Program-made: the position numbers and the translations under genes
IMG/VR virus record: IMGVR_UViG_3300017989_000089
Location: 1 to 64,000 of that record
Direction: 5' to 3' (one strand)
Source: a virus
Lineage: Duplodnaviria > Heunggongvirae > Uroviricota > Caudoviricetes
DNA: 64,000 nt
The notes under the pieces: generated by a model
Seen by the model: the letters and a program-made list of their open reading frames with translations, nothing else
Told to the model about the DNA's origin: nothing
Database searches by the model: none
Shown: positions 37,578 through 56,430 of the stretch, piece by piece
Position numbering within the stretch: the first letter of the stretch is position 1
How the letters are laid out: every line of letters starts with the position of its first letter

Positions 37578-38444
37578 ATGGATAAGAAAATTCCTGACAA
37601 TCCTGGCATCACCCACGTTCTCTACCACGGAAATTGCTACGATGGGTTTACTGCGGCATGGATCGCACGTAACGCTGGTGTGCCAGAAGAAAACATCCGC
37701 CCTGTGAACTATGGAGGGGAGTGTCCACCATTACCGGATCCACCAGGGTCCAAAGTTTTGATGACTGACTTCTCCCTGCCCAGAGAGGGTCTCCAGATGA
37801 TGGAGAAGGCGGTGGAAACTCTGATCGTTCTCGATCATCACAAGACTGCTGAAGCTCAGCTGCATGGACTGCCTTGGGCATACTTCGACATGAACGAATC
37901 GGGTGCGAGCTTGACATGGGACTTCTTCCATCCAGGCGAGCCACGACCGAAATTTGTCAAGTACATCCGTGAACACGATCTATGGAGGTTTGAACTGGCA
38001 CAGTCTGCACAGGTGAGAGCGTTCATTCGATCCTACCCTATGTCCTATGAAAACTGGGATTACCTCAATACGACGATTGAAATGGATTTTGAGATCGTGG
38101 AGCGTGAAGGTGCAGCAATCCAGCGTGGACATGAGGCGTTGATCAGCGAGATGTGCAAACAGGCTGTTATCATGAAAATCGGTGGGCATGAAGTACCGGT
38201 TGTCAATGCGACAATCCTGTTTTCCGAAGTAGCAACACGCCTTCTGAAGCTGTATCCAAATGCTTCATTCGCCGCATACTACATGGATCGCGCTGACGGC
38301 GTTCGTCAATGGGGAATGAGATCACGGAGTGATTTCGACTGCTCAAAGGTCGCGAAACGTTACGGTGGTGGGGGCCACCCTGGAGCATCCGGCTTCGTCA
38401 CAGAAGTCCCAACAATAATCGAAGAAGAGAAAGAAAAGGCTTGA
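37578..38444 (+). CDS. DHH/DHHA1-family phosphoesterase (NrnA-like)
   Basis: 288 aa. Motifs are HGNCYDGFTAAW (DxD), VLDHHKT (DHH) and a C-terminal GGGHPGASGF (DHHA1 GGGH). Confidence 0.65.
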   Translation: MDKKIPDNPGITHVLYHGNCYDGFTAAWIARNAGVPEENIRPVNYGGECPPLPDPPGSKVLMTDFSLPREGLQMMEKAVETLIVLDHHKTAEAQLHGLPWAYFDMNESGASLTWDFFHPGEPRPKFVKYIREHDLWRFELAQSAQVRAFIRSYPMSYENWDYLNTTIEMDFEIVEREGAAIQRGHEALISEMCKQAVIMKIGGHEVPVVNATILFSEVATRLLKLYPNASFAAYYMDRADGVRQWGMRSRSDFDCSKVAKRYGGGGHPGASGFVTEVPTIIEEEKEKA

Positions 38445-38478
38445 CAGCTTAGCTACTGGATCCTACAATTATTCACGT

Positions 38479-38555
38479 AGCGGAGTGGGGGAGAGGCCGT
38501 CCCCGCTGGGCTCATATCCCGGAGATCGCTGGTTCGAATCCAGTCTCCGCCACCA
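38479..38555 (+). tRNA. tRNA-Met (CAT), initiator-like
   Basis: Hand-folded. D-stem gggg/cccc. Anticodon stem ctggg/cccgg has three G-C pairs next to loop ctCATat. T-loop ttcgaat. Position 1:72 is an A-C mismatch. Encoded CCA. Confidence 0.7.
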
Positions 38556-38666
38556 TATTCGAGGTTTGATCCCAGCCTTACCCAAATGGGAGCCGGGCAC
38601 GGTCGGAACCGGGGTACAAACGGGGCCGAGGAATTATCATGAGAGTCAGCGAAAGCATAATACGAC

Positions 38667-38742
38667 TGGGCACGGAGGTCTGGTCGATCCACTGACTCTT
38701 ATAAGGCCGGTGCGCTGGGTTCGATTCCCAGGTGCCCAACCA
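38667..38742 (+). tRNA. tRNA-like / possible pseudo-tRNA (canonical 3' half, aberrant D/anticodon region)
   Basis: Acceptor tgggcac/gtgccca, T-arm ctggg-ttcgatt-cccag and CCA are clean. The intervening 41 nt do not fold into D and anticodon arms. An 8-bp stem agagtcag/ctgactct overlaps the region. Confidence 0.35.
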
Positions 38743-38862
38743 AAAAGAAAGTTGGAAATTATGAGACCTAAAGGCATTGTAAGGACGACTCAGGTGGTCA
38801 TTAATGCCTCCGCGAAGGGGGATACCTCTACGTAGGGCTCGGTCCATACTTCCACAATTCAT

Positions 38863-38892
38863 AGGCCGGGTCCTACGGGGTCCGGCCTTTTT
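38863..38892 (+). terminator. rho-independent terminator
   Basis: GC stem aGGCCGG...CCGGCCt followed by TTTTT. Confidence 0.5.
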
Positions 38893-38968
38893 ACTTTAGG
38901 GGTAAATAAGGTTTGTCCATTAAATTAGTCTGTTCACGTTTCGTGGACACGCAGAAATAATGAACGTT

Positions 38969-39046
38969 CCGGCCCGAGGAAGCTGGTCGTAACCGCTACA
39001 CTGATAATGTAGGTCGAGCGTGGTTCGATTCCACGGGGCCGGACCA
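38969..39046 (+). tRNA. tRNA-Ile (GAT)
   Basis: Acceptor ccggccc/gggccgg. Anticodon stem ctaca/tgtag, loop ctGATaa. T-arm cgtgg-ttcgatt-ccacg. CCA. Confidence 0.7.
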
Positions 39047-39119
39047 ACTAAGAAGGAATAGGAGGTGTGTCAAGTCACTTTCAGCAGGACGTTAACCAAT
39101 TTCCTGCTGGAGGTGTATC

Positions 39120-39449
39120 ATGGCACAGAAAGTTTACTGTGGTGTGCCAGAGAAGGAATGCTTCGGTACTCACCACATTTCAAATGCGATGCTGAATCAC
39201 GCAGCGAGTGTCAAGCTTCACGCGACACACGAAGAAGCCTTCAAGTGTTATAAGCGGTGGTTGATGACGCAAGGGTACGAGCAAATCGGCCCACGTGAGT
39301 TCAGGAAAGAGGGCGAACCGATTCGTGTTCTAACGCGGAAGAGTAAGTTCGGGACAACGATGCGATCAGGAAAGGGAAAAGATGGCTCAAGTCCAGGAAG
39401 TACAAGATACGTTCCGCAAACGACGCGGGGGTTCATCCACAGGAGCTAA
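39120..39449 (+). CDS. hypothetical protein
   Basis: 109-aa ORF between tRNAs. Basic. Confidence 0.3.
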   Translation: MAQKVYCGVPEKECFGTHHISNAMLNHAASVKLHATHEEAFKCYKRWLMTQGYEQIGPREFRKEGEPIRVLTRKSKFGTTMRSGKGKDGSSPGSTRYVPQTTRGFIHRS

Positions 39450-39571
39450 GTTCGGTGCTTGGAGTTTCCGGGTAGTCCGCAGTGTAGGAAGCGGAGGATT
39501 TTGCTTGAGGGTATATGAGACTGCGGAGAGCACCGTCGATGAACAATTGGTTGATTTAATGTTGGAGGAGA

Positions 39572-39647
39572 TCAGGGGTAGCTTAGCGGCTAAAGCGTCC
39601 GGCTGTTAACCGGGTCATCGTGGGTTCGAGTCCCACCCTCTGAGCCA
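39572..39647 (+). tRNA. tRNA-Asn (GTT)
   Basis: D-stem gctt/aagc. Anticodon stem tccgg/ccggg, loop ctGTTaa. T-arm gtggg-ttcgagt-cccac. CCA. Confidence 0.75.
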
Positions 39648-39900
39648 GCTATCATGAACAGAGCGACGAAGAGAATGTACTGCAAGAGTTGCCGTAAGGA
39701 CACTATGTGGTCCCGCGGGATTGCTCTGATCAATAGGTGGCTCGTGAGCGCCGATTTCCTGGGCGACTTCATGGGGACTCTCGAGGAAGCAAAAGCAAAA
39801 GGGATCGACGTGACCGGGCAAACAATGAGCGCAAGCGGACCTCCGTACATAACGAACGCGATGAAGTGCAGCGAGTGTGGGAGGTCGATTACGGATTAGT

Positions 39901-39975
39901 GGGCTGGTAGCTTAATGGGAGAGCGGGTGCTTTGCAAGCATTCAGATGTCGGTTCGACCCCGACCTGGTCCACCA
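39901..39975 (+). tRNA. tRNA-Ala (TGC)
   Basis: G3:U70 pair in the acceptor stem. Anticodon loop ttTGCaa. T-arm gtcgg-ttcgacc-ccgac. CCA. Confidence 0.65.
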
Positions 39976-40342
39976 AACAGACATACCCAGTGGGACATCT
40001 CACGGGGAGGCTTCATACGATACGAATGAGATCGTCACTGTTGCAGTTAGAGCCCAAAGATGTTGTCGGCTCCCCCCGTGCCACTGGGGTGTTCTTGGAA
40101 AGTAGGATGCAGACTTTCGATGAAAGGGGCAAGATGCAAGTTTTCGACAAAAAGGAAGGCAAGTTGATCTCATTGTCTCCCGGCGAGTACGCAGACTTGC
40201 TACAGAGGAAGCACAACGAAGTGAATCAAGGAGGCGGCGTGGAAGCTTGGATGGATTTGATGGGGCTCTTGATTACAGGATTCCCTGCCATCATACAAGC
40301 TCTCAGGCTGACGGACGCCATGACGGAAGTTGATACCAATTA

Positions 40343-40418
40343 GCCCCTGTAGCTTAATTGGAAGAGCGGACGCCTTGTAAGCGACCAGATGCGGGTTCGA
40401 GTCCTGCCGGGGGCTCCA
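40343..40418 (+). tRNA. tRNA-Thr (TGT)
   Basis: Acceptor gcccctg/cgggggc. D-stem gctt/gagc. Anticodon loop ctTGTaa. T-arm gcggg-ttcgagt-cctgc. CCA. Confidence 0.7.
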
Positions 40419-40765
40419 ATGATACGGCATATTAATCGTAGTCATTTGAAACGGAGATGGGGGCGCAAATGGACTAAAAGAGCATGTCCTTGTTGTGGTG
40501 CTGGAGATGATTACAACAGGGAGCGCCAACGAAGGAATCTCAAGGAACGTCTGATCAAGGCAGAGATCAAAGATGGATTGGCCAAAGTGTCCTAAGTGTG
40601 GCACGCCTGGATCTTCAAAAGGATTCCAGGGAGAACTAATTTGGATTCCTACTTGCCAATGTGGCAAAGGACTGTTTCCTGAGAAGCCGATGGTTCGCAT
40701 TTGGGAAACACCTGAGGAGGAAGAAGTGAAGAAGCTCAAACGTAGGAGACGGGAAGAGTAACACC

Positions 40766-40842
40766 GCCTCCATAGTTCAACTGCGCAGAACAACGGGCTT
40801 TTAACCCGTGAGATGTAGGTTCGAATCCTGCTGGGGGCACCA
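40766..40842 (+). tRNA. tRNA-Lys (TTT)
   Basis: Acceptor gcctcca/tgggggc. D-stem gttc/gaac. Anticodon stem acggg/cccgt, loop ctTTTaa. T-arm gtagg-ttcgaat-cctgc. CCA. Confidence 0.8.
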
Positions 40843-40844
40843 GA

Positions 40845-40919
40845 GCCCCCGTAGTCTAATAGGAAAGGCACTGGACTTCTAATCCAGGAGATGTAGGTTC
40901 GAGCCCTACCGGGGGTTCC
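40845..40919 (+). tRNA. tRNA-Arg (TCT)
   Basis: Lies 2 nt after tRNA-Lys. Anticodon stem ctgga/tccag, loop ctTCTaa. T-arm gtagg-ttcgagc-cctac. CCA. Confidence 0.8.
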
Positions 40920-41071
40920 AAGATGGTGGACATAACACCAAATGATCCAGGTTGGATCACACTGATCGAGGACGACGAGCCGATTACCGGCGAATCGCTA
41001 TGCAAGGAATGTGGGAGGCCTATTAAGGATCACTACAACGAACGATCCTGCCCTGAACTGAAAGGGGGAAT

Positions 41072-41566
41072 ATGATCTATCTAGTTTCCTACATAGAGGA
41101 AGTGAAGATCGGTTGGCGTGCGTACGATCGCTGGATGTTCGATATATTGGATACAGGATTCGGCATCGACATTCACTATTACATCCCAATCGATCTACAA
41201 AAAGACGGAGACTGGTTCTGGAGCAAAGGAAGAGGAGGGGAGGACAAAAGGTTCGTTGCAGATCTCCCAATGCTGAAGAGAGTGCTCGGTGATATCAACT
41301 ATGTAAATGTCCAACCTGCAAAAGTGCTGAGGTCACTTGGTAAGGTGGGACAGAACCTAACGAACTTCATCCATCCCGATGAAGACGTTTGTTACATCTT
41401 CGGACCAAATAAAGGGAAGATAGAACTACTGCCGGGTTATAATGTCTACATCACGCTCGAGAAGAGTGCGCTGCATGCTTCATCCGCTGCAGCAATCGTG
41501 CTTTATGACCGAAGAGCAAAGATCGAAACTGGTACTCGTGGTTGGCCCACCGAGAAGCGGGACTAG
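41072..41566 (+). CDS. SPOUT-class RNA 2'-O-methyltransferase (TrmL/TrmH-like)
   Basis: 164 aa. The C-terminal half (YIFGPNKGKIELLPGYNVYITLEKSALHASSAAAIVLYD) matches TrmL motifs (FGPE..G; IPM..SLN.S.A.A..LYE). Confidence 0.45.
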   Translation: MIYLVSYIEEVKIGWRAYDRWMFDILDTGFGIDIHYYIPIDLQKDGDWFWSKGRGGEDKRFVADLPMLKRVLGDINYVNVQPAKVLRSLGKVGQNLTNFIHPDEDVCYIFGPNKGKIELLPGYNVYITLEKSALHASSAAAIVLYDRRAKIETGTRGWPTEKRD

Positions 41567-42107
41567 CGTCACTGCTAGGATCCTTCATGAGAAGATCGGC
41601 ATTTGTTTTGGACATAATCTAGTACCAGGCAATGCTGGCAACCCGAAAGGGTTCTACGAAGATTCACAGATGGTGGCAGCGACCTTGACCAAGAACACGG
41701 CGATCTGGAGAACGATGCTCGAGTATGTTCACAGCAAATGTAACAAACCGAGAGGAGTGAAAACACCTGAGCTAGCTTTCATGGAGATCAGAGAACTACA
41801 ACCGGATCTCATTTTTAGAACATGTAGGTCTCCTATAGCGATCGCAGACAGCTTGGAGCGTTGGTATCAACCGAAACCATCGTGTGCAGATGCACTGTCG
41901 ATGGCAGTAAAATACGAAAAGGCTATCGAGGAAAAACTAACCGGAATCAGTTGTCATGTCCATCGTGTTGACTTCTACCGACAGCGCGACGAGGGAGAGT
42001 TGGAGGAAGAGTTGAGAAAGGCATGTACCTCCGTAATTCAGCGGATAGAAGGCCGGACTCTTAATCCGGAGGTCGTAGGTTCGAATCCTACCGGGGGTAC
42101 CAAATGA
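41505..42107 (+). CDS. PAPS-dependent sulfotransferase-family protein
   Basis: LVLVVGPPRSGTS matches the 5'-PSB P-loop (PKSGTT) and RSPIAIADSLERWY matches the 3'-PB motif (R.P.D...S.Y..W). The ORF begins at 41442; internal ATG 41505 was chosen. It overlaps the SPOUT gene, and its 3' end runs into tRNA-Lys(CTT). Confidence 0.5.
   Translation: MTEEQRSKLVLVVGPPRSGTSVTARILHEKIGICFGHNLVPGNAGNPKGFYEDSQMVAATLTKNTAIWRTMLEYVHSKCNKPRGVKTPELAFMEIRELQPDLIFRTCRSPIAIADSLERWYQPKPSCADALSMAVKYEKAIEEKLTGISCHVHRVDFYRQRDEGELEEELRKACTSVIQRIEGRTLNPEVVGSNPTGGTK
42027..42101 (+). tRNA. tRNA-Lys (CTT)
   Basis: Anticodon stem ccgga/tccgg, loop ctCTTaa. T-arm gtagg-ttcgaat-cctac. Acceptor 3' cgggggt, then A and CCA. 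Confidence 0.7.
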
Positions 42108-42173
42108 TCTACTGCCACATTTGCAAGAAGAACTACAAGGAATGCACGTGTGGTCTCTCAGAAAGGATGAAGG

Positions 42174-42419
42174 ATGCCCGAGAAAGGCAACGTAGAGAAA
42201 AAGAGGACACCAAAGGGGGATATGATAGACGGTCCGGCCCACTACAAGGGGTACGACGTTCTGGAGTTCATAAATCGACATGACCTCGGTTTCGAGCTTG
42301 GTAACGCAGTCAAGTACATTGCTCGAGCACAAGCCAAGGGTAAAGAGATCGAGGACTTGAAAAAAGCGGTATTCTATTTGAATTGGTACATCGAAAGAAA
42401 GGAGAGTGGAGCGGAGTAG
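42174..42419 (+). CDS. hypothetical protein
   Basis: 81-aa ORF between two tRNAs. Confidence 0.35.
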   Translation: MPEKGNVEKKRTPKGDMIDGPAHYKGYDVLEFINRHDLGFELGNAVKYIARAQAKGKEIEDLKKAVFYLNWYIERKESGAE

Positions 42420-42486
42420 TTCAGTTGGCTAGAACGTCCGGCTCTGAACCGGAAGGTCGCTGGTTCGAGCCCAGCCTCCGCTTCCA
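42410..42486 (+). tRNA. tRNA-Gln (CTG)
   Basis: D-stem gttc/gaac with D-loop agttggcta. Anticodon stem tccgg/ccgga, loop ctCTGaa. T-arm gctgg-ttcgagc-ccagc. CCA. Confidence 0.8.
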
Positions 42487-42495
42487 ATTAGGACA

Positions 42496-43482
42496 ATGAG
42501 CGACGAGAGAGTACACAGCTACAGCAGCCCGTACGCAGTTGGGCACAAGATGCTCGCCCGTTACGAAGATCGCCCAGGCATCTTCGAGGTGGAGGTCTTT
42601 GTCGAAGAGAAGATCGATGGAAGCCAGTTCTCCTTTCGTAAAGAAGGAGACGAGGTGAAGTTCCGCTCTCGCAAGACAGATCTCTACCCCGGCAATGCGG
42701 GGATGTTCGAGAAGGGAGTACAATCTGTACTCGAGGTTGCCGATCGCCTCTCCGAAGGTTGGACGTATCGTGGTGAGTATCTCATGAAGCCAAAACACAA
42801 TACACTATGCTACGAGCGTGTACCGAATAGAAACGTCGTGATCTTCGATATCGAGAAGGCACCGAATGACTTCCTGACTCCAGACCAGCGAATGGAGGAA
42901 GCAACACGGCTCGGGTTCGATGTCGTTCCTGTGTACTTCACCGGAATGATCGACGACATGAACCAGCTGAAGCAGTTCCTGACCAAGGTTTCCATACTTG
43001 GTGGACCGATCGAGGGGATCGTAATCAAGCCAAAGAGTCAGATGCTATTCGGTATCGACAAGAAGCTTCTCATGGCTAAGTTCGTTGCCGAAGACTTCAA
43101 GGAGAAGCATGAAGGTGAGTGGAAGAAGTCCAATCCAGGACGGAAGGACATCGTTCAGGAGATCATCGAGACTTACAAAACGCCTCAGAGATGGAACAAA
43201 GCCGTACAGCACCTTCGTGAGGCTGGTAAGCTCGAGGGATCTCCACGGGACATTGGACTTCTCATGAAGGAAGTCCCAAGCGACGTCTACAAGGAATGCG
43301 CCGAAGAGATCAAGGAACAGATCTTCAAGTACTTTTGGAGACAGATCTCTAGAGCATTGACGAGTGGACTACCCGAGTGGTACAAGGAAAAACTTGCGAA
43401 GGACGCGTTCGAGAATCCGGAAGGTTGTCAGCCTCATGAGAGTGTCCAAGCCGAGAACGGGGAAGGAGCAAAGCCAGAATGA
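42496..43482 (+). CDS. ATP-dependent nucleic-acid ligase (Rnl2-like RNA ligase / small DNA ligase)
   Basis: 328 aa. Nucleotidyltransferase motif I is EEKIDGSQ (KxDG), motif IV is EGIVIKP, motif V is LLMAKFVAEDFKEK. Size and context suggest RNA ligase. Confidence 0.65.
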   Translation: MSDERVHSYSSPYAVGHKMLARYEDRPGIFEVEVFVEEKIDGSQFSFRKEGDEVKFRSRKTDLYPGNAGMFEKGVQSVLEVADRLSEGWTYRGEYLMKPKHNTLCYERVPNRNVVIFDIEKAPNDFLTPDQRMEEATRLGFDVVPVYFTGMIDDMNQLKQFLTKVSILGGPIEGIVIKPKSQMLFGIDKKLLMAKFVAEDFKEKHEGEWKKSNPGRKDIVQEIIETYKTPQRWNKAVQHLREAGKLEGSPRDIGLLMKEVPSDVYKECAEEIKEQIFKYFWRQISRALTSGLPEWYKEKLAKDAFENPEGCQPHESVQAENGEGAKPE

Positions 43483-43676
43483 GAGAGCGTTGTCCACGGT
43501 GTGGTATCCCATTTCTGAAGCACGAAGTAATAGTTGGTGAGGAGATGCCTCTTGGAGACGGTACGAAGTGCTATGGGCGTAAAGGGGTAATCTACTACCA
43601 CAAAACAGGCATCCACTGTGGGATCAAAGATGATGGGACAATGTACGAGATAGACTGCAGAGCAAAGCCCGATTAG
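43479..43676 (+). CDS. zinc-ribbon mini-protein
   Basis: 65 aa with CPRCG...C..C-like cysteine pairs. Overlaps the ligase stop. Confidence 0.3.
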   Translation: MRERCPRCGIPFLKHEVIVGEEMPLGDGTKCYGRKGVIYYHKTGIHCGIKDDGTMYEIDCRAKPD

Positions 43677-43740
43677 CTCAATAGGAGAGCCACCGGCCTA
43701 CACCCGGAAGACGGGGGAGCGTTACCTCCATCGGGCACCA
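43667..43740 (+). tRNA. atypical tRNA-like (anticodon TAC?, non-canonical T-loop agcgtta)
   Basis: Perfect acceptor gcccgat/atcgggc and CCA. D-stem gctc/gagc. T-stem ggggg/cctcc, but the loop is agcgtta (not TTC). Anticodon loop cctacac carries C33. Confidence 0.35.
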
Positions 43741-43745
43741 AGTTT

Positions 43746-43855
43746 GGCTGGGGTGAGATTCGTCTGGCACCCTCCATGGCAAGCCAACGCGGGGGCTATC
43801 CTGGACGCAGGGTACGGTGGGTACACGGTAAACAGTCCCACAGCTTACCCCAGCC
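43746..43855 (+). ncRNA. structured RNA-like element closed by a 9-bp stem (unknown)
   Basis: ggctggggt (43746-43754) pairs perfectly with accccagcc (43847-43855). Interior is GC-rich with local hairpins. No canonical tRNA fold. Confidence 0.25.
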
Positions 43856-43913
43856 AAAAAGTATACGATTATCTACCTTAAGTAGGGATAGGGTACATAA
43901 TTGTGGACATTAT

Positions 43914-44012
43914 GGAGGTGTGAGCGGAAATAGGCTATCGCCCCTCGTTGGAAGCGAGGCTCGCCTCGGTCAGCGCCGGGGCGTGTAGGTTCGAGTCCTA
44001 CCACCTCCGCCA
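43914..44012 (+). tRNA. tRNA-Ser (GGA), class II
   Basis: Acceptor ggaggtg/cacctcc. Anticodon stem cctcg/cgagg, loop ttGGAag. Long variable arm with 6-bp stem cctcgg/ccgggg. T-arm gtagg-ttcgagt-cctac. CCA. Confidence 0.55.
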
Positions 44013-44050
44013 TGCACCCTTGAGTGTATGCAAAGAGGTAATACACCCTC

Positions 44051-44377
44051 TTGAGGGTACAAAAGAGGGTAACACAGAAAGTAGGTAATATGACCTGGAA
44101 TTTAGGTGTTGCTAAATGGATCGCCTTATTGACTGTGGTCACCTGCATAAGATGGGTAGATATCACAGGTGATTCTGGTTGGGTATCCAAAGAGGAGATT
44201 ACCGAGGCAGCAGAGATTACCAGCTGTGGGATCCTTGTGAAAGAGGATGACGAATTTCTCTGGCTCGCTATGGACGCATCTGAGGACGAGGAGTTCAATT
44301 CAACCGGTGTCTTCCCAAAGGGGGTCATCCTGAAGAGGATAGATACCGAAGTTGACATGGATCTCGAAAAGGACTAG
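44051..44377 (+). CDS. hypothetical protein
   Basis: 108-aa ORF with a hydrophobic N-region and acidic C-terminus. Confidence 0.3.
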   Translation: MRVQKRVTQKVGNMTWNLGVAKWIALLTVVTCIRWVDITGDSGWVSKEEITEAAEITSCGILVKEDDEFLWLAMDASEDEEFNSTGVFPKGVILKRIDTEVDMDLEKD

Positions 44378-44409
44378 ACGCAGAGAGCCCAACCACGTAT
44401 AATTCGGAC

Positions 44410-44488: not shown

Positions 44489-44578
44489 AAATCAATGAGT
44501 TGCCTACTTTGCTTTTTGACGTTCGTAGCGTTTATACTTGTGTCTGCATTGTATGCAAGGAAACGCAAGAAGGGTTGA

Positions 44579-48806: not shown

Positions 48807-49113
48807 ACGTGTCGATGCGAACCAAGCGCAGATAGTCAAAGAACTGCGAGATGCTGGATGTTCCGTCCAGTGTTTACACGAAGTTGGGAAGGGATGCCCT
48901 GATATCCTGGTGGGCTATGAGGGCTACAATTTCCTTTTCGAGATCAAGGATCCATCCAAACCGCCTAGCAAGAGAAAGTTGACTTCCGATGAAGAAACAT
49001 GGCATAATTCTTGGGCTGGAGATGCTACCATCATCTTCACATCAGAGTATGCGCTTCACTATATGGAGTCCTGTGTTGGCTGTAGCTCAAGTAGTCAGAG
49101 CACCGGCCTGTGA
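48799..49113 (+). CDS. VRR-NUC-domain (PD-(D/E)xK) nuclease-like protein
   Basis: 104 aa. GCPDILVGYEGYNFLFEIKD matches the VRR-NUC core (G.PD......EvK). The 3' end runs into tRNA-His. Confidence 0.45.
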   Translation: MAKRVDANQAQIVKELRDAGCSVQCLHEVGKGCPDILVGYEGYNFLFEIKDPSKPPSKRKLTSDEETWHNSWAGDATIIFTSEYALHYMESCVGCSSSSQSTGL

Positions 49114-49184: not shown

Positions 49185-50228
49185 GTGAAACAGTATATTG
49201 GTTTCGTAAGGGACCACTCCATCTCAATGACCCACCTGGCAGCAGGAGCAGCTAGGGACTACAACACAAACGTCAAGGCAGTTCAAGACGCAGCGAACGC
49301 ACACCAACTGGATACGATCGTAAGCACAGTACTGTGTGGGATCAAAGGCGAAGGTTGGAATGATCGCGGCGTGGTAAAGCGTGAGATCGTCAATTCGAAC
49401 GTTCACATGCTGAAGCCCATTCCAGAACAAACATACCTTACGAATGGGTCCTCCACTCCTCTTCTCGACTCCGTTGGAGAACTGATCGAGATCATGGAGT
49501 CTATGCCTGATGCACAAGACCAGAATGTCTCCTTCCTTCTGATTGTGATCACAGATGGACAGGAGAACGACTCACACAAGTGGGATAGGTACAGTCTCAC
49601 TGAGAAGATCAAGAAGCTTCAGTACTCGGACCGCTGGACCTTCACATTCAGGGTTCCCCGCGGAGAGACTTGGTACCTCGAGCAACTTGGCATCCCACGC
49701 GGCAACATCCTCGAATGGGATCAGACGCAGCATGGATTGGAGAGAGCGACCAAAGACACAGTGCGTGCGGTGACTCATTACTACACGCAGCGCAGCAAGG
49801 GTGTGACAAGCTCTCGCTCATTCTACGCTGACCTCAGTGACGTCAGCATTCACGAGGTCAAACGAAACCTCAAGGATATCTCGAAGGAGATCGAGGTGTG
49901 GCCCGTCAAAAATGCTGGCAGTGAAATCCGAACCTTCTGTGAGTTCCACACCAACGATGGTGACTACCTGAAGGGTGCGGCTTTCTACGAACTCACGAAG
50001 CCGGAGACAGTTCAGGACTACAAGCAGATCGTGATCAGGAATCGGAAGAACGGAAAGTGCTATGGTGGTCCCGCAGCAAGACAAATGCTGGGGCTCCCCG
50101 ATTTCGGACAAGTCAGACTGCGTCCTGGCGACCACGGGCAGTACGACATCTTCATTCAGTCGACGAGCGTGAATCGGAAGCTGATGAAGGGTACACGTGT
50201 CGTGTATTGGGAAGGCGCGGTGCGGTAA
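49185..50228 (+). CDS. von Willebrand factor A (vWA) domain protein
   Basis: 347 aa. MIDAS motif DHSISM (DxSxS) near the N-terminus, plus VITDGQEN. Confidence 0.55.
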   Translation: MKQYIGFVRDHSISMTHLAAGAARDYNTNVKAVQDAANAHQLDTIVSTVLCGIKGEGWNDRGVVKREIVNSNVHMLKPIPEQTYLTNGSSTPLLDSVGELIEIMESMPDAQDQNVSFLLIVITDGQENDSHKWDRYSLTEKIKKLQYSDRWTFTFRVPRGETWYLEQLGIPRGNILEWDQTQHGLERATKDTVRAVTHYYTQRSKGVTSSRSFYADLSDVSIHEVKRNLKDISKEIEVWPVKNAGSEIRTFCEFHTNDGDYLKGAAFYELTKPETVQDYKQIVIRNRKNGKCYGGPAARQMLGLPDFGQVRLRPGDHGQYDIFIQSTSVNRKLMKGTRVVYWEGAVR

Positions 50229-50473
50229 TGCCTGGGCCGGTATCGGATAGCTACGACCCTGAATGGGGAACCGGAGCAAATAGGGACAGGATCGAGAACG
50301 AGCTAACGGCTATGTACCGAGAGTTGGGCAGAGTCATTGGAGGACCACCGAAGTATATCATGGAAGTAGTTGACGGTACGGATGGACCTCTATTGGATGT
50401 TCAGCCTGGATACACGGAGAAGCAGTGGAGGCTACTCCGGTTCGCGCTCGAACGTGCCATAGAGTCTCTATGA
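50228..50473 (+). CDS. hypothetical protein
   Basis: 82 aa. Start is the internal ATG 50228, overlapping the vWA stop as TAATG. Confidence 0.35.
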   Translation: MPGPVSDSYDPEWGTGANRDRIENELTAMYRELGRVIGGPPKYIMEVVDGTDGPLLDVQPGYTEKQWRLLRFALERAIESL

Positions 50474-50733
50474 AAACCACAGTAGTCAACAAGAACTACG
50501 AACTTTACGATGTCTATATCGGACGTCCCTCGAAATGGGGGAATCCGTTTAGACCAAAGGGCAGATCTGAGAAGGCTAGGCTTGAAGCGATCCGTAAGTA
50601 TGCACTCTGGATTGCTGAGCAGCCTGAGCTACTCAAAGCTGCCAAGACAGAATTGCGTGGCAAACGGCTTGGGTGTTACTGTAAGCCCAAGCCGTGCCAC
50701 GGTGATATTCTAGCGGAGATTGCAGATGCCTAG
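50470..50733 (+). CDS. DUF4326-family protein
   Basis: YELYDVYIGRPSKWGNPF and LGCYCKPKPCHGDILAE match the conserved DUF4326 motifs. Start is the internal ATG 50470. Confidence 0.55.
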   Translation: MKTTVVNKNYELYDVYIGRPSKWGNPFRPKGRSEKARLEAIRKYALWIAEQPELLKAAKTELRGKRLGCYCKPKPCHGDILAEIADA

Positions 50734-51154
50734 AGTAAAGTTTATCTCTTCCATCACCGATTGGTTCCTTGTCATAACGGCAGCGGTACTCTTCACTCTG
50801 GAAATGGTTGCCGTGGCAGGATACGTGCCTCTAATCACGACCGAGACCGTTGAGATCTCCGTATTTCAGCTTTGGGTCCCGGCGGCATTGGGTGCCCTCA
50901 TGGGCCACTTCTTCCCGCTACCTTTTTCGCTGTTCGGGCGTAAGAAGTACTACACCAGGAACTTCCTGATTGCCTTATTCGCTGGTGTGGGATTCTACCT
51001 ACTGTGGTACTTCAAGGCTCCAGAGGCCCAGGTAAATTCTGTCCTTGACATTCTCGCCGATCGTTTGTATGCTTTCTTCCTAGGCGGTTACTTCATAGGG
51101 AGTGAGTTCTTCCTTAGAGGGCTTCACCCGCTGGAAAGAGAGGATACAGAATGA
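50720..51154 (+). CDS. multi-pass membrane protein
   Basis: 144 aa with about four predicted TM helices. Confidence 0.45.
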   Translation: MQMPRVKFISSITDWFLVITAAVLFTLEMVAVAGYVPLITTETVEISVFQLWVPAALGALMGHFFPLPFSLFGRKKYYTRNFLIALFAGVGFYLLWYFKAPEAQVNSVLDILADRLYAFFLGGYFIGSEFFLRGLHPLEREDTE

Positions 51155-51239
51155 GAGCTACGATGCAACCTTTATTGCGACTCGCTTATCGATTTAGTCG
51201 GTCACGACTGAGTTGGCGGTCGTATGCCCTCCAAGCGTA

Positions 51240-51316
51240 GCCCCCGTAGTCTAACTTGGCAAAGACGACGGGCTCAAACCCCGCAGTTAGAGGTTCGAAT
51301 CCTCTCGGGGGTACCA
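51240..51316 (+). tRNA. type-I tRNA with anticodon CAA (Leu-type anticodon; unusual short form)
   Basis: Acceptor gcccccg/cgggggt. D-stem gtct/agac with D-loop aacttggcaa. Anticodon stem (a)cggg/cccg(c), loop ctCAAac. 4-nt variable loop. T-arm agagg-ttcgaat-cctct. A73 and CCA. Confidence 0.5.
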
Positions 51317-51361
51317 CTTGGCTCCAGCCACCAACCAAAGCAATTATTCCAGGAGTGATCT

Positions 51362-51751
51362 ATGTCTAAAAAGTTTGTCGATGCTATAGCCAAGTACAAT
51401 CGTGTCGCAATCGCTGGAGGACCGAGGACAGGCAAGACGACGTTGGCTGCATTGGGAGCTTCTCCCAATCGGCGAGTCTACCACACGGATGACTTCATGC
51501 ATCTCAACTGGAAGGATCAGCCGGAGTTCATTATCCAGCTACTGAAGGATCAGTCACGATACATTGTCGAAGGTGTCCAGGTTGCTAGAGCATTGAGAAG
51601 CGGGTTGCAGGTTGATGCTGTCGTCTTCATTCGAACCCCTAAGGTTGTTCTGAATACGCGGCAAGAGGGAATGCGGAAGACGATCGACAAGATCTTCACC
51701 GATTGGTACGACGCGAACAACGGCAGGGTACCGATCATCTTTATAGAATGA
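51362..51751 (+). CDS. P-loop NTPase / small kinase (possible polynucleotide kinase)
   Basis: 129 aa. Walker A is VAIAGGPRTGKTTLA. Preceded by RBS AGGAG. Confidence 0.45.
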   Translation: MSKKFVDAIAKYNRVAIAGGPRTGKTTLAALGASPNRRVYHTDDFMHLNWKDQPEFIIQLLKDQSRYIVEGVQVARALRSGLQVDAVVFIRTPKVVLNTRQEGMRKTIDKIFTDWYDANNGRVPIIFIE

Positions 51752-51975
51752 TGAAAGAAGATCTGTTCGTAACTGGTTTCATTCTGATGTACTTCGCGTT
51801 CGCCTTCGGTGCAGGGTTCTACACCGGATGGATGAAACGAAAGCATTGGGTTGAGCAGAGACTCTCGAGAAGTCGTCCTCGAGAGAACCCGGTAGAGGGT
51901 GACCGAGACGATCCGGGTAATCCCTTTTGACGGGGATCCGGGGTCGCCCTCACCGTTAACGAAAGGAAGAATCAA

Positions 51976-52200
51976 ATGTCCAAGCATGTCGTTATCGAAG
52001 CGCACCTCGTGGCGGATAATTCGATTCACAATCCGCACAATGTTGCAGACAGAGCGGCACAGAAGGTTAAGGAGATGCTCGAAGAGAACTACAAGAAGAA
52101 GGAGTTGCTCAAGGACAAAGATGGGAAAGTCCAAGAGCAACCGGTGAAGGTTCTTCTTGTAACACACCGCATCTCAGACATTCTGGATACACCGGAATGA
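51976..52200 (+). CDS. hypothetical protein
   Basis: 74 aa, behind RBS GAAAGGAAG. Confidence 0.35.
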   Translation: MSKHVVIEAHLVADNSIHNPHNVADRAAQKVKEMLEENYKKKELLKDKDGKVQEQPVKVLLVTHRISDILDTPE

Positions 52201-52623
52201 GCAATGGTGCGAGGCTCGTAGGACGCCCACCCCATCCGGAGTGGTGCCGTTGCTGCGAATATTGGAGGAATCTGTTAAAGCAGATCTTGGAGGAAAACAA
52301 TGCCAAGGCGGGGAAGAGCGAAGAAAGGGAAGATGTCGCCGCAGAGCCTGATGAACTCAGGACAGTTTGGCGATCTCCCGACCATTAATGTACCTGGATG
52401 GAAGGCGGATTACGGAGCAACGGAGCTTCGCATTCTGGTCGAAGGCCTTCTTCGTCAGGGCTACTCGTTCCAAGACTGCAGAAGGAAAGTCCACGAGCTA
52501 ACCGGACAAATTATCGTCGAGGATGAACGTGGAAACGTTCGCTGGCTTCACCGAAATAGTAGAGGTAACAAAGTCAGCAAGGCGGTTGGATACGCGAAGG
52601 GACCTTATAGGCAAACAGATCGT

Positions 52624-52699
52624 GCTCCTGTAGCTCAGAAGGTAGAGCGCCGCCCTGAAGAGGCGGGCGTCGGTGGTTCGATTCCACCTGGGAGCACCA
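52624..52699 (+). tRNA. tRNA-Phe (GAA)
   Basis: D-stem gctc/gagc. Anticodon stem ccgcc/ggcgg, loop ctGAAga. T-arm ggtgg-ttcgatt-ccacc. CCA. Confidence 0.75.
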
Positions 52700-53222
52700 C
52701 TACTCCTACTGGCAGAATTGTCAAAGAAGATGACGTTGCCTATGTGCTACCGAGTGGGAAGATCAGATCGAAACGCGCCATGATGGCCATCCTCTATGGA
52801 ATGGACGAGCGACAAGCTGACGAGAAGTATCCTCCATATCGGGATAACTCATGGGATCGTTTAAAGCCGGGTGAAGTCAAAAGCGAACGTCAATCGATAA
52901 GGATGGGGACGTATGAAACTAAATTTACCCAAACTGCCGGAGGGGCTGAAGATCAACATAGGCGGAAAGAAAGAATCCGAGAGCGGATCCGAGAAAAAAG
53001 AGAAGCCAAAGTTTCTCGCGCCAAATCTGAGAGAGTACTGGCTGGACGGTCGGGGGTTCGTGCGGAGGATCGATCTCCGTGGTACAACGAGGAAAGAAGC
53101 GAAGGAAGAGAAACGTCGGCAGAAGAAAGAACGCGTGAAGGAATTGAAACGATTGAAGAACTTGCAAGCGCGATCGAAGGAATAGCAAAGGCTTTAGGAT
53201 CATGAAAGTATGGTGGTGTCTA

Positions 53223-53291
53223 GGCGTGCCCTCTGGGAGGAGCGAGGTCTCCAAAACCTTGCAGCTGGGTTCGATTCCTAGGCGCGCCGCC
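53223..53291 (+). tRNA. tRNA-Trp (CCA)-like with truncated D-arm (69 nt)
   Basis: Good acceptor ggcgtgc/gcgcgcc. Anticodon stem gaggt/acctt, loop ctCCAaa. T-arm ctggg-ttcgatt-cctag. CCA. Only 14 nt lie between the acceptor and anticodon stems. Confidence 0.4.
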
Positions 53292-53300
53292 AAAGAAAGT

Positions 53301-53378
53301 GCCGGTGTAGCCCAACCAGGCAGAGGCGACTGGCTTAGAACCAGGAGGTTGTAGGTTCGAATCCTACCACCGGTACCA
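53301..53378 (+). tRNA. type-I tRNA with anticodon TAG (Leu-type anticodon; unusual short form)
   Basis: Acceptor gccggtg/caccggt. D-stem gccc with D-loop aaccaggcag. Anticodon stem (a)ctgg/ccag(g), loop ctTAGaa. 5-nt variable loop. T-arm gtagg-ttcgaat-cctac. A73 and CCA. Confidence 0.5.
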
Positions 53379-53389
53379 GGAGTCATAAA

Positions 53390-53593
53390 ATGCTGACTTG
53401 TCCGATTTGCGGAAAGAAATTCAATCCTGTGGAGGACCTTGGTGATCCTATCACGGTGCGTATCGCGCTTTATAGAGGCCAGGCAGCTGAATTGAAGATC
53501 GTTCCATGCGCTGAGTGCTACGCAAAGGCCGATGAACTCATAAGCAAGTACGCAAAAGCCCTCGTAGCCCAACTGGCAGAGGCGTTGGTCTGA
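53390..53593 (+). CDS. zinc-ribbon mini-protein
   Basis: 67 aa with CPICGKK...CAEC. Confidence 0.35.
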   Translation: MLTCPICGKKFNPVEDLGDPITVRIALYRGQAAELKIVPCAECYAKADELISKYAKALVAQLAEALV

Positions 53594-53634
53594 GAGGCCA
53601 AAGGTTGGTAGTTCGAATCTACCCGGGGGCACCA
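53558..53634 (+). tRNA. type-I tRNA with anticodon GAG (Leu-type anticodon; unusual short form)
   Basis: Acceptor gccctcg/cgggggc. D-stem gccc with D-loop aactggcag. Anticodon stem ttggt/gccaa, loop ctGAGag. 5-nt variable loop. T-arm ggtag-ttcgaat-ctacc. A73 and CCA. Confidence 0.5.
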
Positions 53635-53648
53635 GAAAGGAACCTGAA

Positions 53649-53885
53649 ATGGCTGACTATTTCGTGATTCAGCGACTGAACGAGAATCAGACTGCGGTCT
53701 ACAAGTTTAGTAGCAAAAGAGATCTACAGATCGCATTGCAGGAAGGTAAATTCGTCCCGAAGTTCGTTGGCGACATTGACGAGGTCGACGAGGTCGAGTA
53801 CTGGGAATACGATTCAATCATGATCATCAAAGGCAACATCATCGTACCGGAAGCGAAAGAGCAAGTGACCGTTTGGGAGGTCTGA
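53649..53885 (+). CDS. hypothetical protein
   Basis: 78 aa, behind RBS AAAGGAAC. Confidence 0.35.
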   Translation: MADYFVIQRLNENQTAVYKFSSKRDLQIALQEGKFVPKFVGDIDEVDEVEYWEYDSIMIIKGNIIVPEAKEQVTVWEV

Positions 53886-54124
53886 AAATGAAGGATATGC
53901 TTCGTTATGCGGTCCAGTTCAGTGTTTATCCGATGGCGTGCAAGCGTGTTCGCATCGAGGCTCTGACAAAGTGTGGCGACGACAAACTGTGGGCAGTACA
54001 CGTGGACGTCGGCCCTATCATCACTGAGGGTGCCGTCGCGAACGCTGTTGACATGCTCCTATTTCGGATCGCACAAAGGGCACAAACGGAGTCGAGCAAT
54101 GGAGTGATTGAAGTGGAAGGGTGA
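53873..54124 (+). CDS. hypothetical protein
   Basis: 83-aa ORF overlapping the previous stop. Confidence 0.35.
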   Translation: MGGLKMKDMLRYAVQFSVYPMACKRVRIEALTKCGDDKLWAVHVDVGPIITEGAVANAVDMLLFRIAQRAQTESSNGVIEVEG

Positions 54125-54202
54125 CCGAGTGGTAAGGTGCCCGGCTGCTACCCGGAGGCTGTCTTAACCGGCACGGAGGTTCAATTCCTCCTCCTTCCGC
54201 CA
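54115..54202 (+). tRNA. tRNA-Ser (GCT), class II
   Basis: Acceptor ggaaggg/tccttcc. Anticodon stem cccgg/ccggg, loop ctGCTac. Long variable arm. T-arm ggagg-ttcaatt-cctcc. CCA. 88 nt. Confidence 0.65.
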
Positions 54203-54219
54203 AAAGAAAGGAGAGGACA

Positions 54220-54561
54220 ATGTTAACAGTTTACAAGTACCAAATTCCGGCTACGCTCACTGGAAACGGTATCAGGTTCGAGAATGAGTTTACACTCGAG
54301 ATACCTAATCCTGGAATCATAACAACGATGGGGGTGCAACCGTCCAGGAGCCCTCACTTGCAGATCTGGGCACTGGTGGACGATGAACCTACAGTTATAC
54401 GTGAACGCCGTTTCGTTTTTCTAGGAACTGGACACACGACGAAGCATGCGAATCTGCAATTCATCGACGCATGGGTAACAGACGGACTCGTTTTTCACCT
54501 GTTCGAGGTGATGAATCCGGAACTCGAAGCCGGAGAAGACAAGGTTGGAGGAACCGATTAA
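54220..54561 (+). CDS. hypothetical protein
   Basis: 113 aa, behind RBS AAAGGAGAGG. Confidence 0.4.
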   Translation: MLTVYKYQIPATLTGNGIRFENEFTLEIPNPGIITTMGVQPSRSPHLQIWALVDDEPTVIRERRFVFLGTGHTTKHANLQFIDAWVTDGLVFHLFEVMNPELEAGEDKVGGTD

Positions 54562-54586
54562 TGAAAGGTGAAGGATCATCGAGACT

Positions 54587-54681
54587 GGAGGGTGCCGGGC
54601 CAATGGGTGCCCAACCGGTCTCGAAAACCGGGGGACCTCCCGAGAAGGGGGGTCGGGGTTCGAATCCTCCACCCTCCGCCA
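54587..54681 (+). tRNA. tRNA-Ser (CGA), class II
   Basis: Acceptor ggagggt/accctcc. Anticodon stem ccggt/accgg, loop ctCGAaa. Long G-rich variable arm. T-loop ttcgaat. CCA. Confidence 0.55.
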
Positions 54682-54883
54682 GAATGCCTGTGACGGCTTA
54701 TCGATTGCCTCACATGACTTATAACGAAGTCATCTTCTGTGATGGGTACAGTAGGCATTATATGCGGTTGGATGTGAAAAGTGACAACTTCGTTTGTCAG
54801 TTCTGCAAGCGGGATATGGTAGTCACCAAACAAACCATTCGGATGTTCCTGCAGGAGCATTACGGAACAAAGGAAGTGGGATT

Positions 54884-55204
54884 ATGAGACAGAAGGAATG
54901 GAATATCGGAGTGAAAATCGAGAGAGAAGCCATGGAGAATGGTTACCTCGGTTTACTACACAAGTACGGAACCCGTGTACTCGCCGGTAACATGAAGCTG
55001 GCTAGTCAGCTTATCAAGACCGGAGTCGTGTTCACGTTCTACGACAACTTCACCACTGCGGTTATCATAGATAAGTACGGTAGAATGGTCTCTGCCGGTG
55101 CTGCGAAAAGACTGCCGACCGACAAGGTGAATCCAAACATTGGCAAGTGTGTCGCTCTGTGGAGAGCATTCGATGCCTACTTCGTTAGGGTAGCGAAGAG
55201 ATGA
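54884..55204 (+). CDS. hypothetical protein
   Basis: Start is the internal ATG 54884, behind AAGGAAG. Stop overlaps the rtcB start as GATGA. Confidence 0.35.
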   Translation: MRQKEWNIGVKIEREAMENGYLGLLHKYGTRVLAGNMKLASQLIKTGVVFTFYDNFTTAVIIDKYGRMVSAGAAKRLPTDKVNPNIGKCVALWRAFDAYFVRVAKR

Positions 55205-56430
55205 ACGATCACCACTATGATGTCTACGTGGCTGATGGTAAACCGGTGTATGCCTGGGTGAAGGGTGTACCGATCGAGGACGAAGCACTGACACAAGTGC
55301 TCAACGTCTCGAGAATGCCTTTCATCCACCATCACGTTGCGGTTATGCCCGACGTCCATGCGGGGATGGGTGCTACTATCGGATCAGTGATCCCAACAAA
55401 GGGTGCCATCATCCCTGCGGCGGTAGGCGTGGACATTGGTTGTGGTATGCAGGCTTGCCACACCAACTGGGGTATCCACGATCTTCCGAAGGACCTTAGC
55501 AAGCTGCGTGAAGCCATTGAGAAGCTCGTACCCCACGGAAGGACGGATAATGGTGGGCCGATGGACCGCGGTGCGTGGGGAACACCTCCACCGGGCGTGA
55601 ACACCGCGTGGCAGAACGAGTGTGACCCCGATAAGTTGGCTACACTCGTAGCGAAGTATCCTGAGTTGGGAAAGGCGAACTCGACCAGACATCTCGGGAC
55701 TCTAGGTACGGGTAATCACTTTATTGAGATCTGCCTGGACGAAAACGACAGCGTGTGGGTAATGCTCCACTCAGGCTCGAGAGGGATCGGTAACAAGATT
55801 GGTAGCTTCTTTATAAGACTAGCGAAGGAAGACATGAAGAAGTACTATATCACTCTACCGGATCCAAATCTGGCTTACTTTGTCGAGGGTACCACGAACT
55901 TTACCGACTACATACTTGCGGTAAAGTGGGCTCAGAGGTTCGCGCAGGTGAACAGATGGTTCATGATGAACCAGACACTGGCGGCTATGGAGCATGCAAC
56001 CAAGATCCACTGCTATGGAAAGGAGCCGATCATTGACTGTCACCACAACTACGTCGAACTCGAGCATCACTACAACGAGAACATTTGGGTCACTCGTAAG
56101 GGAGCTACAAGAGCTAGAGAAGGCGATTTTGGAATTATTCCAGGATCCATGGGTGCTCGAAGCTATATCGTCCGTGGAAGAGGCGTTCAGGAATCTTTCC
56201 ACAGCTGCTCGCACGGCGCTGGAAGGGCTATGTCTCGTACCGCAGCTAAGAAGCGATTCTCTATCGAGGATCACAAGAAGGCCACCGAGGGGATCGAGTG
56301 CAAGAAAGATGACTCTGTCCTCGATGAAACCCCAGGTGCATACAAGGATATTGACGCGGTCATGGAAGCGCAGAAGGACCTAGTGGAGGTTGTTCATGAA
56401 CTCAAGCAGGTGGTTTGTATCAAAGGCTAG
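55201..56430 (+). CDS. rtcB: RtcB-family RNA ligase (3'-phosphate/5'-hydroxyl)
   Basis: 409 aa. Motifs are MPDVHAGMGATIGSV, GTGNHFIEI, HSGSRGIGNK and CSHGAGR. Size equals E. coli RtcB. Confidence 0.8.
   Translation: MNDHHYDVYVADGKPVYAWVKGVPIEDEALTQVLNVSRMPFIHHHVAVMPDVHAGMGATIGSVIPTKGAIIPAAVGVDIGCGMQACHTNWGIHDLPKDLSKLREAIEKLVPHGRTDNGGPMDRGAWGTPPPGVNTAWQNECDPDKLATLVAKYPELGKANSTRHLGTLGTGNHFIEICLDENDSVWVMLHSGSRGIGNKIGSFFIRLAKEDMKKYYITLPDPNLAYFVEGTTNFTDYILAVKWAQRFAQVNRWFMMNQTLAAMEHATKIHCYGKEPIIDCHHNYVELEHHYNENIWVTRKGATRAREGDFGIIPGSMGARSYIVRGRGVQESFHSCSHGAGRAMSRTAAKKRFSIEDHKKATEGIECKKDDSVLDETPGAYKDIDAVMEAQKDLVEVVHELKQVVCIKG

Follow-up and report, generated by a model that had tools for sequence, protein, structure and literature searches.

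An RtcB ligase and an Rnl2-like RNA ligase in a phage tRNA array: a possible two-chemistry route to tRNA repair

Combinations of RNA ligases with phage-encoded tRNAs have been described in tRNA-rich jumbo phages, which carry RtcB and/or Rnl1/Rnl2 in any combination, a gene content read as RNA repair by Iyer, Anantharaman, Krishnan, Burroughs & Aravind (2021, Viruses 13:63; PMC7824862); the healing enzymes listed there are polynucleotide kinase (PNK) together with HAD, 2H or calcineurin-like phosphoesterases. In the T4 system, Pnkp and the ATP-dependent ligase Rnl1 act on tRNA-Lys cut by PrrC (cited in PMC12409363). Here we describe a tRNA gene array that encodes both RtcB and a 328-amino-acid (aa) ATP-dependent ligase, located in a 64,000-nucleotide stretch of an uncultured Caudoviricetes phage (positions 1 to 64,000 of IMG/VR record IMGVR_UViG_3300017989_000089; hereafter the window). 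As in the jumbo phages, in which such a complement is read as guarding translation against host RNases, phage tRNAs stand together with RtcB and an Rnl-type ligase. By comparison, this phage is smaller (83-kb contig) and has no close cultured relative, and PNK, HAD, 2H and RlaP, which usually accompany ATP-dependent ligases in jumbo phages, were not detected among the array open reading frames (ORFs) scanned. The locus resembles the T4 system in that a phage ATP-dependent RNA ligase would be pitted against anticodon-loop breaks, whereas it differs in that no Pnkp homologue was found in the window and the 7.8 kb beyond it, the ligase is Rnl2-like, and the healing-free RtcB is present instead. 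The concept of two ligases plus tRNAs is already published for jumbo phages; what is new here is a smaller, novel phage, in which no healing enzymes were found, and an uncharacterised Rnl2-like ligase family.

The stretch comes from a metagenomic contig of 83,289 bp (ENA ERZ27256770 k141_459559), window position w corresponding to contig position 83290-w. The sequence examined comprised the window and the 7.8 kb past its end. The principal features are as follows.

38479–63456, plus strand: phage tRNA gene array, with 27 tRNAs called by ARAGORN and one Val-UAC tRNA found by Rfam
42496–43482, plus strand: ATP-dependent RNA ligase joining 3'-OH and 5'-phosphate ends, 328 aa (PF09414, phrog_548 and predicted fold)
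55201–56430, plus strand: RtcB RNA ligase, 409 aa (PF01139, E 3e-127; phrog_1075, E 4e-141)

We propose, with confidence evenly balanced between acceptance and doubt, that these two ligases directly reseal two types of tRNA break with no healing step. The assignment of RtcB is solid at the level of sequence: the protein matches PF01139 at 425.7 bits (cutoff 27) over profile positions 1–426, and its residues D78, C81, N172/H173, H190, H282 and H338 align to D95, C98, N202/H203, H234, H329 and H404 of Pyrococcus horikoshii RtcB, whose roles as metal-binding Asp/Cys/His and GMP-accepting His residues we take from the established literature. The array protein is accordingly an RtcB RNA ligase, as the initial annotation of this stretch had proposed, with a predicted intact active site, and would form the core repair component; its predicted chemistry is the GTP/Mn-dependent joining of 3'-phosphate or 2',3'-cyclic phosphate to 5'-OH ends. 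It shares family and catalytic residues with bacterial RtcB (E. coli RtcBA) and with the archaeal and eukaryal tRNA-splicing RtcB. By comparison, it belongs to a phage clade, falls under the NCBIfam cutoffs for E. coli-type and PrfH-associated RtcB, and has no RtcA, RtcR or archease nearby.

Linkage between RtcB and tRNA genes is a strong and general feature of phages. Among GenBank phage records, 695 carry an RtcB annotation. Single-sequence RtcB patterns retrieved nothing from IMG/VR, and a four-sequence alignment yielded a set of 80 viral RtcB loci, with relatives 52–62% identical. These loci contain 205 tRNAs in 1.37 Mb (0.149 tRNA/kb), a density 6-fold above that around the 328-aa ligase family (0.026 tRNA/kb) and 17-fold above that around the DHH phosphoesterase family considered below (0.009 tRNA/kb); 35 of the 80 carry at least one tRNA, 19 at least three and nine at least eight. 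The commonest among the nearest identifiable RtcB neighbours is a PF09414 RNA ligase (three loci), and HD, TROVE, PTH2, NADAR and NUDIX proteins also occur. Pairing of RtcB with an Rnl-type ligase is recurrent yet infrequent among phages. The ORFs flanking RtcB in the array (106, 221 and 484 aa) have no homologue in any ligase or RtcB locus. On account of this tRNA-array linkage, tRNA repair, as put forward in the initial annotation, is the likeliest role, for RtcB at least; the accompanying kit of end-modifying enzymes is not supported.

The second ligase belongs to the RNA-ligase type. The 328-aa protein scores 56.9 bits against PF09414 RNA_ligase (cutoff 27) and matches phrog_548 'RNA ligase' with an E-value of 2e-31, and its motifs K39-x-D-G, Y91-R-G-E94, F117-D118, E173-G-x-V-x-K178 and K195, covering motifs I, III, IIIa, IV and V of the covalent nucleotidyltransferase superfamily, are invariant or nearly so across 31 family members, which bears out the KxDG, EGxVxK and K..K motifs noted previously. 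The family comprises ~5000 homologues of ~300 aa in metagenomic clusters. An AlphaFold model built on 31 homologues (predicted local distance difference test score, pLDDT, 86.8) consists of a nucleotidyltransferase domain (residues ~30–198) followed by an all-helical C-terminal domain (~199–306), and the model contains no OB fold. A Foldseek search of the PDB with this model ranks full-length T4 Rnl2 first, followed by TbREL1, NgrRnl, Rnl3, Rnl1 and Trl1, with DNA ligases starting only at rank 37; within the clade of T4 Rnl2, trypanosome REL1 and Naegleria NgrRnl, the nucleotidyltransferase domain is structurally closest to Rnl2. Sequence identity to T4 Rnl2 is ~16–17%, and the 31-member profile retrieved no Rnl2 chain from the PDB sequences at E-values up to 1, its best match being the Rnl3 protein Pab1020 (E 0.018). 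Because both single-sequence and profile searches against the PDB were marginal, structure comparison was needed to place the protein. Pfam gives it no Rnl1-like assignment, and Rnl1 comes lower in the structural comparison. Together, sequence and model identify it as an RNA-ligase-type enzyme with a predicted Rnl2-like catalytic domain and a family-specific C-terminal domain, probably the second repair ligase of the array. A DNA ligase was considered and rejected: PF01068 reaches only 21.3 bits (below its 26.2 cutoff) and covers motif I alone, the model lacks an OB domain, and structural comparison places DNA ligases lower, while both profile and fold are those of an RNA ligase.

The array is thereby predicted from sequence to hold both RNA-joining chemistries, one ligase each, as had been claimed. 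The termini generated by metal-independent anticodon nucleases (PrrC, RloC and colicins among them) are 2',3'-cyclic phosphate (or 3'-phosphate) and 5'-OH, and RtcB seals 2',3'-cyclic-phosphate/5'-OH breaks without a healing step. The array RtcB would act on such ends, joining 2',3'-cyclic-phosphate or 3'-phosphate termini to 5'-OH termini. Metal-dependent defence tRNases, by comparison, include the Toprim enzymes AriB and OLD, the HNH protein PtuB and PIN toxins. The Rnl2-like ligase would take 3'-OH and 5'-phosphate ends such as those left by metal-dependent tRNA nucleases, namely the Toprim effectors of PARIS and OLD. The Toprim tRNase AriB leaves 5'-phosphate/3'-OH tRNA ends (PMC12409363), and P2-OLD likewise leaves 5'-phosphate/3'-OH ends that can be ligated 'without additional end healing', a singly nicked tRNA being resealed by T4 Rnl1 and by Rnl2 alike (PMC12445682). 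Since each ligase would take its own break type directly, neither a kinase nor a phosphatase would be needed, in agreement with the lack of a recognisable healing enzyme. In this scheme the array would provide tRNAs of the phage's own and would have gathered a pair of RNA ligases with opposite chemistries; repair by the ligases and replacement by the 28 tRNAs would then form two protective layers for translation against tRNA-targeting defences.

Consistent with this scheme, the array ORFs of at least 100 aa (~30 further ORFs, scanned with Pfam, PHROG and NCBIfam) include no Pnkp, HAD, 2H, HD, archease, RlaP or CCA-adding enzyme, and tblastn over the window and the 7.8 kb beyond it found no Pnkp-, PNK3P- or HAD-like sequence with HAD_SAK, a PNK3P-like HAD and T4 Pnkp as queries, the last being an approximate sequence. 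The absence of a detected healing enzyme, the biochemistry of RtcB and the published ends of Toprim tRNases make one ligase per chemistry the most economical model. Sequence and models show the identity, fold, active-site integrity and genomic distribution of the proteins; we infer a tRNA substrate, activity of the ATP-dependent ligase on RNA in the cell, and a counter-defence function. A wider generalization, in which the 328-aa family as a whole is a large phage RNA-ligase family that reseals, free of healing, the 5'-phosphate/3'-OH tRNA nicks of metal-dependent defence tRNases, and together with RtcB and the 28 tRNAs forms a minimal two-ligase strategy for both chemistries, is tentative and in our judgement doubtful. 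Defences that cleave tRNA (PrrC, RloC, PARIS, OLD, retron-Eco7 and Schlafen-like nucleases) are now seen as widespread, and phage tRNA arrays as a means of countering them. A separate ligase for each mode of cleavage, if true, would explain the co-occurrence of RtcB and ATP-dependent ligases without healing enzymes and would predict which defences can be survived. The ligase family is abundant in metagenomes and may offer a useful enzyme as an Rnl2-like nick sealer; nothing here contradicts the published idea, and in practice the main gain is a tidier annotation, with roles assigned in a form that can be tested.

Three further genes had been grouped with the ligases as candidate end-modifying enzymes. 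All five ORFs are open at the coordinates listed, the one at 1837–3033 lying on the minus strand.

51362–51751, plus strand: minimal P-loop kinase-fold protein, 129 aa (Walker A G19-GPRTGKT; fold model)
37578–38444, plus strand: stand-alone DHH-DHHA1 phosphoesterase, NrnA-like, 288 aa (D86-H-H, G263-GGGH; phrog_4771)
1837–3033, minus strand: helix-turn-helix (HTH) and calcineurin-like metallophosphoesterase, 398 aa (motifs read from sequence; phrog_284)

The toolkit had been described as embedded in the tRNA array. This is correct for RtcB, the ligase and the P-loop gene, whereas the DHH gene directly precedes the first tRNA and the metallophosphoesterase gene lies outside. In the proposed scheme these three would be independent genes with other roles, and the 'larger, differently composed kit' inferred from them was an overstatement for what amounts to a pair of ligases with no healing enzyme that can be recognised.

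The P-loop protein is confidently modelled as a kinase fold (pLDDT 96.6), as had been anticipated, although in the model this fold is indistinguishable from those of nucleoside and nucleotide kinases, and matches of its profile to PDB sequences are restricted to the Walker A loop. The family is rare, with only 49 homologues in 5.8 billion sequences, and its invariant residues are GGPxxGK[TS], T42-D43, E70-G71, R79 and D85. On three long contigs (L089, 6001–6402; L092, 6001–6426; L094, 6001–6507) the homologues are found within packaging or tail modules, one immediately upstream of TerL, one between TerL and a 725-aa ORF and one between the tail terminator and sheath genes, and none of these three contexts contains an RNA-repair neighbour. 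A role as polynucleotide 5'-kinase of the T4 Pnkp, CthPnkp or Clp1 kind is not supported: the protein stands alone, it occurs in none of the 80 ligase loci, and its homologues reside in packaging and tail modules. The gene has the typical insertion pattern of a small mobile accessory ('moron') with a kinase fold, and its product probably stands outside any repair system.

The DHH protein matches phrog_4771 'DHH phosphoesterase' (E 7e-69), with Pfam DHHA1 at 24.3 bits, slightly under the cutoff of 25.9. Its family counts 12,199 cluster representatives, mostly of ~275 aa, and H17/D22, D64, D86-H87-H88, D134 and G263-G266-H267, which cover DHH motifs I–IV and the GGGH motif of DHHA1, are invariant among 38 homologues. 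The best matches of the 38-member profile are stand-alone phosphodiesterases of the NrnA/TmPDE/GdpP/Pde2 type; the protein shares the DHH and GGGH motifs with the NrnA/TmPDE/GdpP type and differs in being shorter (~275–290 aa) and in its motif I, H-x-N-C-x-D-G, in which an invariant C20 (38 of 38 homologues) replaces the usual D-x-D. RecJ, the identity that would have pointed to DNA metabolism, was considered and rejected: at 288 aa the protein lacks the length (>550 aa) and extra domain of RecJ, and a single 338-aa 'RecJ-like' chain was matched (E 6e-5). In 80 viral loci of the DHH family, RtcB, the ligase and the P-loop gene are each never co-present, and tRNAs occur in eight. The nearest DHH neighbours (n=147) include DNA methylases, integrases, thymidine kinase and dCMP deaminase, with RlaP and HAD_SAK_2 once each, and the phiCbK homologue lies among nucleotide-metabolism genes with no tRNA near. 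With no linkage to tRNA, RtcB or the ligase family (0/80) and neighbours that lean to nucleotide metabolism, the protein is, judging from sequence, more likely a phosphodiesterase for the turnover of nanoRNA, pAp or (cyclic) oligonucleotides, and probably not an RNA end-healing enzyme. Iyer et al. assigned phage DHH enzymes to the degradation of cyclic-nucleotide signals and placed those of jumbo phages, together with calcineurin-like enzymes, under counter-signalling, in agreement with this conclusion (PMC7824862).

The metallophosphoesterase carries an N-terminal HTH and the motifs D138-x-H, G194-D, G246-N-H, H305/H306/H308 and G342-H-x-H. Its PHROG matches are phrog_284 'exonuclease' (E 5e-33) and phrog_704 'DNA repair exonuclease' (E 1e-11), while the Pfam Metallophos model gave no match to this ORF, and homologues of the protein are found in ~35-kb Bacteroides and Phocaeicola phages. 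The gene lies downstream of the lysis amidase gene, 35 kb from the array. These phage exonuclease families and this position tell against the end-modifying role first ascribed to it; it is not part of the array and has no link to RNA repair. An adjoining ORF (1376–1819, minus strand) gives a weak PHROG match to nucleoside 2-deoxyribosyltransferase (E 2e-4), which may point to a small cluster for nucleotide or DNA metabolism following the lysis genes.

The genomic context of the ligase family was characterised in 80 IMG/VR loci encoding it, with 10-kb flanks, by clustering the neighbouring proteins and checking the cluster representatives by Pfam. It is here that most of the points weighing against direct resealing by two tRNA ligases are found. 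Only 15 of the 80 loci carry a tRNA (35 tRNAs in total, 16 of them from one locus), and replication or recombination genes lie within 4 kb of the ligase in 41, of which 32 have core replisome genes (family-A polymerase, DnaB, Prim-Pol/AAA_25 or SSB). The family is present in two of the 80 RtcB loci, and RtcB lies within 10 kb in three of the 80 ligase loci; in the array itself, RtcB and the ligase are 11.7 kb apart and do not share an operon. The ligase family has no characterised member, and the C-terminal helical domain has no clear match to the C-domain of Rnl2. A healing enzyme or a DNA ligase may yet lie in the contig's last ~11.5 kb. The context keeps alive a DNA-metabolism role, in which the ATP-dependent ligase would be a DNA-replication accessory acting on RNA-primer 3'-OH nicks or RNA/DNA junctions that landed in the array, leaving RtcB alone for RNA repair. 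Most of the replication-linked loci lack a tRNA, and Rnl2-type enzymes, as exemplified by T4 Rnl2, seal nicks on duplexes, both of which favour such a role. Against it stand the RNA-ligase-type fold and profiles, the missing OB domain and the lower scores of DNA ligases, and in four loci with a family-A polymerase within 4 kb of the ligase the RNA-repair phosphatase HAD_SAK_2 is co-present, in two of them as the nearest downstream ORF of the ligase. Because RNA-repair genes of the T4 type also sit in early or replication clusters, the ligase context alone is not decisive, and we consider the replication role possible, if improbable. RNA-repair partners in all occur in seven of the 80 ligase loci, as HAD_SAK_2 in four, a PNK3P-like HAD in one and RtcB in three; the usual home of the family is early or replication clusters, and it is sometimes paired with genuine RNA 3'-end-healing phosphatases.

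The replication role is further opposed by the fact that the ligase accompanies tRNAs and RtcB both here and in an independent phage of like content, L046 (IMGVR_UViG_3300037067_005096, 112 kb), which is the best comparator. In L046, RtcB (41–982, partial, 38% identical), a member of the ligase family (9986–10891, with a LAGLIDADG endonuclease ORF before it) and a tight cluster of 15 tRNAs (13870–15522) lie within 15 kb, and a PNK3P-like HAD (10884–11642) overlaps the stop codon of the ligase. The same comparator, the strong general enrichment of tRNAs around phage RtcB and the standing of RNA-ligase genes as the top identifiable RtcB neighbours argue against the absence of any functional connection, under which the array would be a hotspot of 'morons' with RtcB and the ligase acting on rRNA, mRNA or phage transcripts, or being weakly selected. 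The mostly unknown and heterogeneous nature of the ~45 small ORFs of the array, the behaviour of the P-loop family as a mobile insertion and the repair of rRNA besides tRNA reported for bacterial RtcB (PMC9304027) speak for such a hotspot, which we regard as unlikely. Less likely still, indeed very improbable, is a full heal-and-seal kit, in which the P-loop protein would serve as 5'-kinase and the DHH protein and/or the metallophosphoesterase would clear 2',3'-cyclic and 3'-phosphates for the ATP-dependent ligase, parallel to RtcB. Neither the DHH nor the P-loop ORF has a counterpart in any of the 80 ligase loci, and the co-occurrence counts in the ligase, DHH and RtcB loci led us to reject the five genes as a conserved module.

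Direct resealing by the two ligases is proposed for an array of 28 tRNAs, the 27 ARAGORN calls plus the additional Val tRNA. Each of these genes includes the 3'-CCA, in agreement with the scan of the array ORFs, in which no CCA-adding enzyme was detected. ARAGORN calls in the set include Lys-UUU, Lys-CUU, Tyr, Thr, Arg, His, Asn and Asp; tRNAs for Lys, Tyr, Thr, Arg, His, Asn and Asp are the usual targets of nucleases. When the whole window was scanned, five of the ARAGORN calls did not reach the Rfam gathering score (Ile-tat 38667, Ile-gat 38969, Ser-gga 43914, Trp 53223 and Ser-cga 54587), and the Trp tRNA is only 70 nucleotides long. The ~45 ORFs between the tRNAs are on the same strand, and the four genes for the DHH protein, the ligase, the P-loop protein and RtcB are spaced 3.5–7.9 kb apart, with tRNAs and ~30 unknown ORFs between them.

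The 28th tRNA, missed by ARAGORN, lies at 43667–43740 on the plus strand (Rfam match at 43667–43737, 44.9 bits). Its anticodon loop CCUACAC corresponds to Val(UAC) and has C at position 33, where U is universal; an A·A mismatch tops the anticodon stem, and the gene overlaps the 3' part of a 65-aa ORF (43479–43676). The altered anticodon loop could be relevant to nuclease evasion. Overlaps of tRNA genes with ORFs are seen elsewhere in the array: tRNA-Lys(CUU) (42027–42102) is wholly overlapped by the 3' end of a 200-aa ORF (41505–42107, plus strand), and a 301-aa ORF (52300–53205, plus strand) is open right across tRNA-Phe (52624–52699), being annotated whole by some gene callers and only as its post-tRNA 153-aa part by others. 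Near-consensus sigma-70-like promoters occur at 38441–38469, 44375–44403, 48979–49008 and 51045–51073 on the plus strand, 7–170 bp upstream of Met, Asp, His and Leu tRNAs; a search of the array for promoters and terminators gave counts no higher than in shuffled controls.

A 347-aa ORF of the array (49185–50228, plus strand; phrog_26613) belongs to a family of >1500 clusters, typically at least 50% identical and often on contigs of 100–380 kb, for which neither a Pfam match nor a PDB match was found, the PDB sequence search included. A possible vWA domain is suggested for the N-terminal half of the protein by its MIDAS-like signature D-x-S-G-S…T-P-L…T-D-G. Matches in cultured phages include several large and presumably tRNA-rich ones (Caulobacter Cr30, Mycobacterium Myrna/Phabba and Streptomyces phages), and in locus L248, with 10 tRNAs, a family member (8296–9324) stands immediately upstream of RtcB.

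The phage itself is distant from cultured relatives. The region has no megablast match among GenBank phages, the large terminase is at most 36% identical to that of any isolate, and an IMG/VR scan with a lineage-specific 663-aa ORF found no relative. Window positions 1–37491 form a minus-strand block with the large terminase, the lysis amidase and long, presumably structural ORFs of up to 1683 aa; genes are on the plus strand only from 37578 on, and minus-strand genes resume past ~65.4 kb. A 512-aa protein with a DUF4417 domain (E 2e-24) is encoded at the strand-switch point (35953–37491, minus strand), and its N-terminus weakly matches type II methyltransferase models of PADLOC (E 2.5e-8). 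A PADLOC run on the large unknown ORFs gave zero matches. Beyond the window end, a 188-aa gene (L086, 18264–18830, minus strand; approximate window equivalent 69650–70220) has a precomputed match to PF26128 (Gad2, anti-Gabija), and its place in the minus-strand block past the array suggests that anti-defence genes lie nearby.

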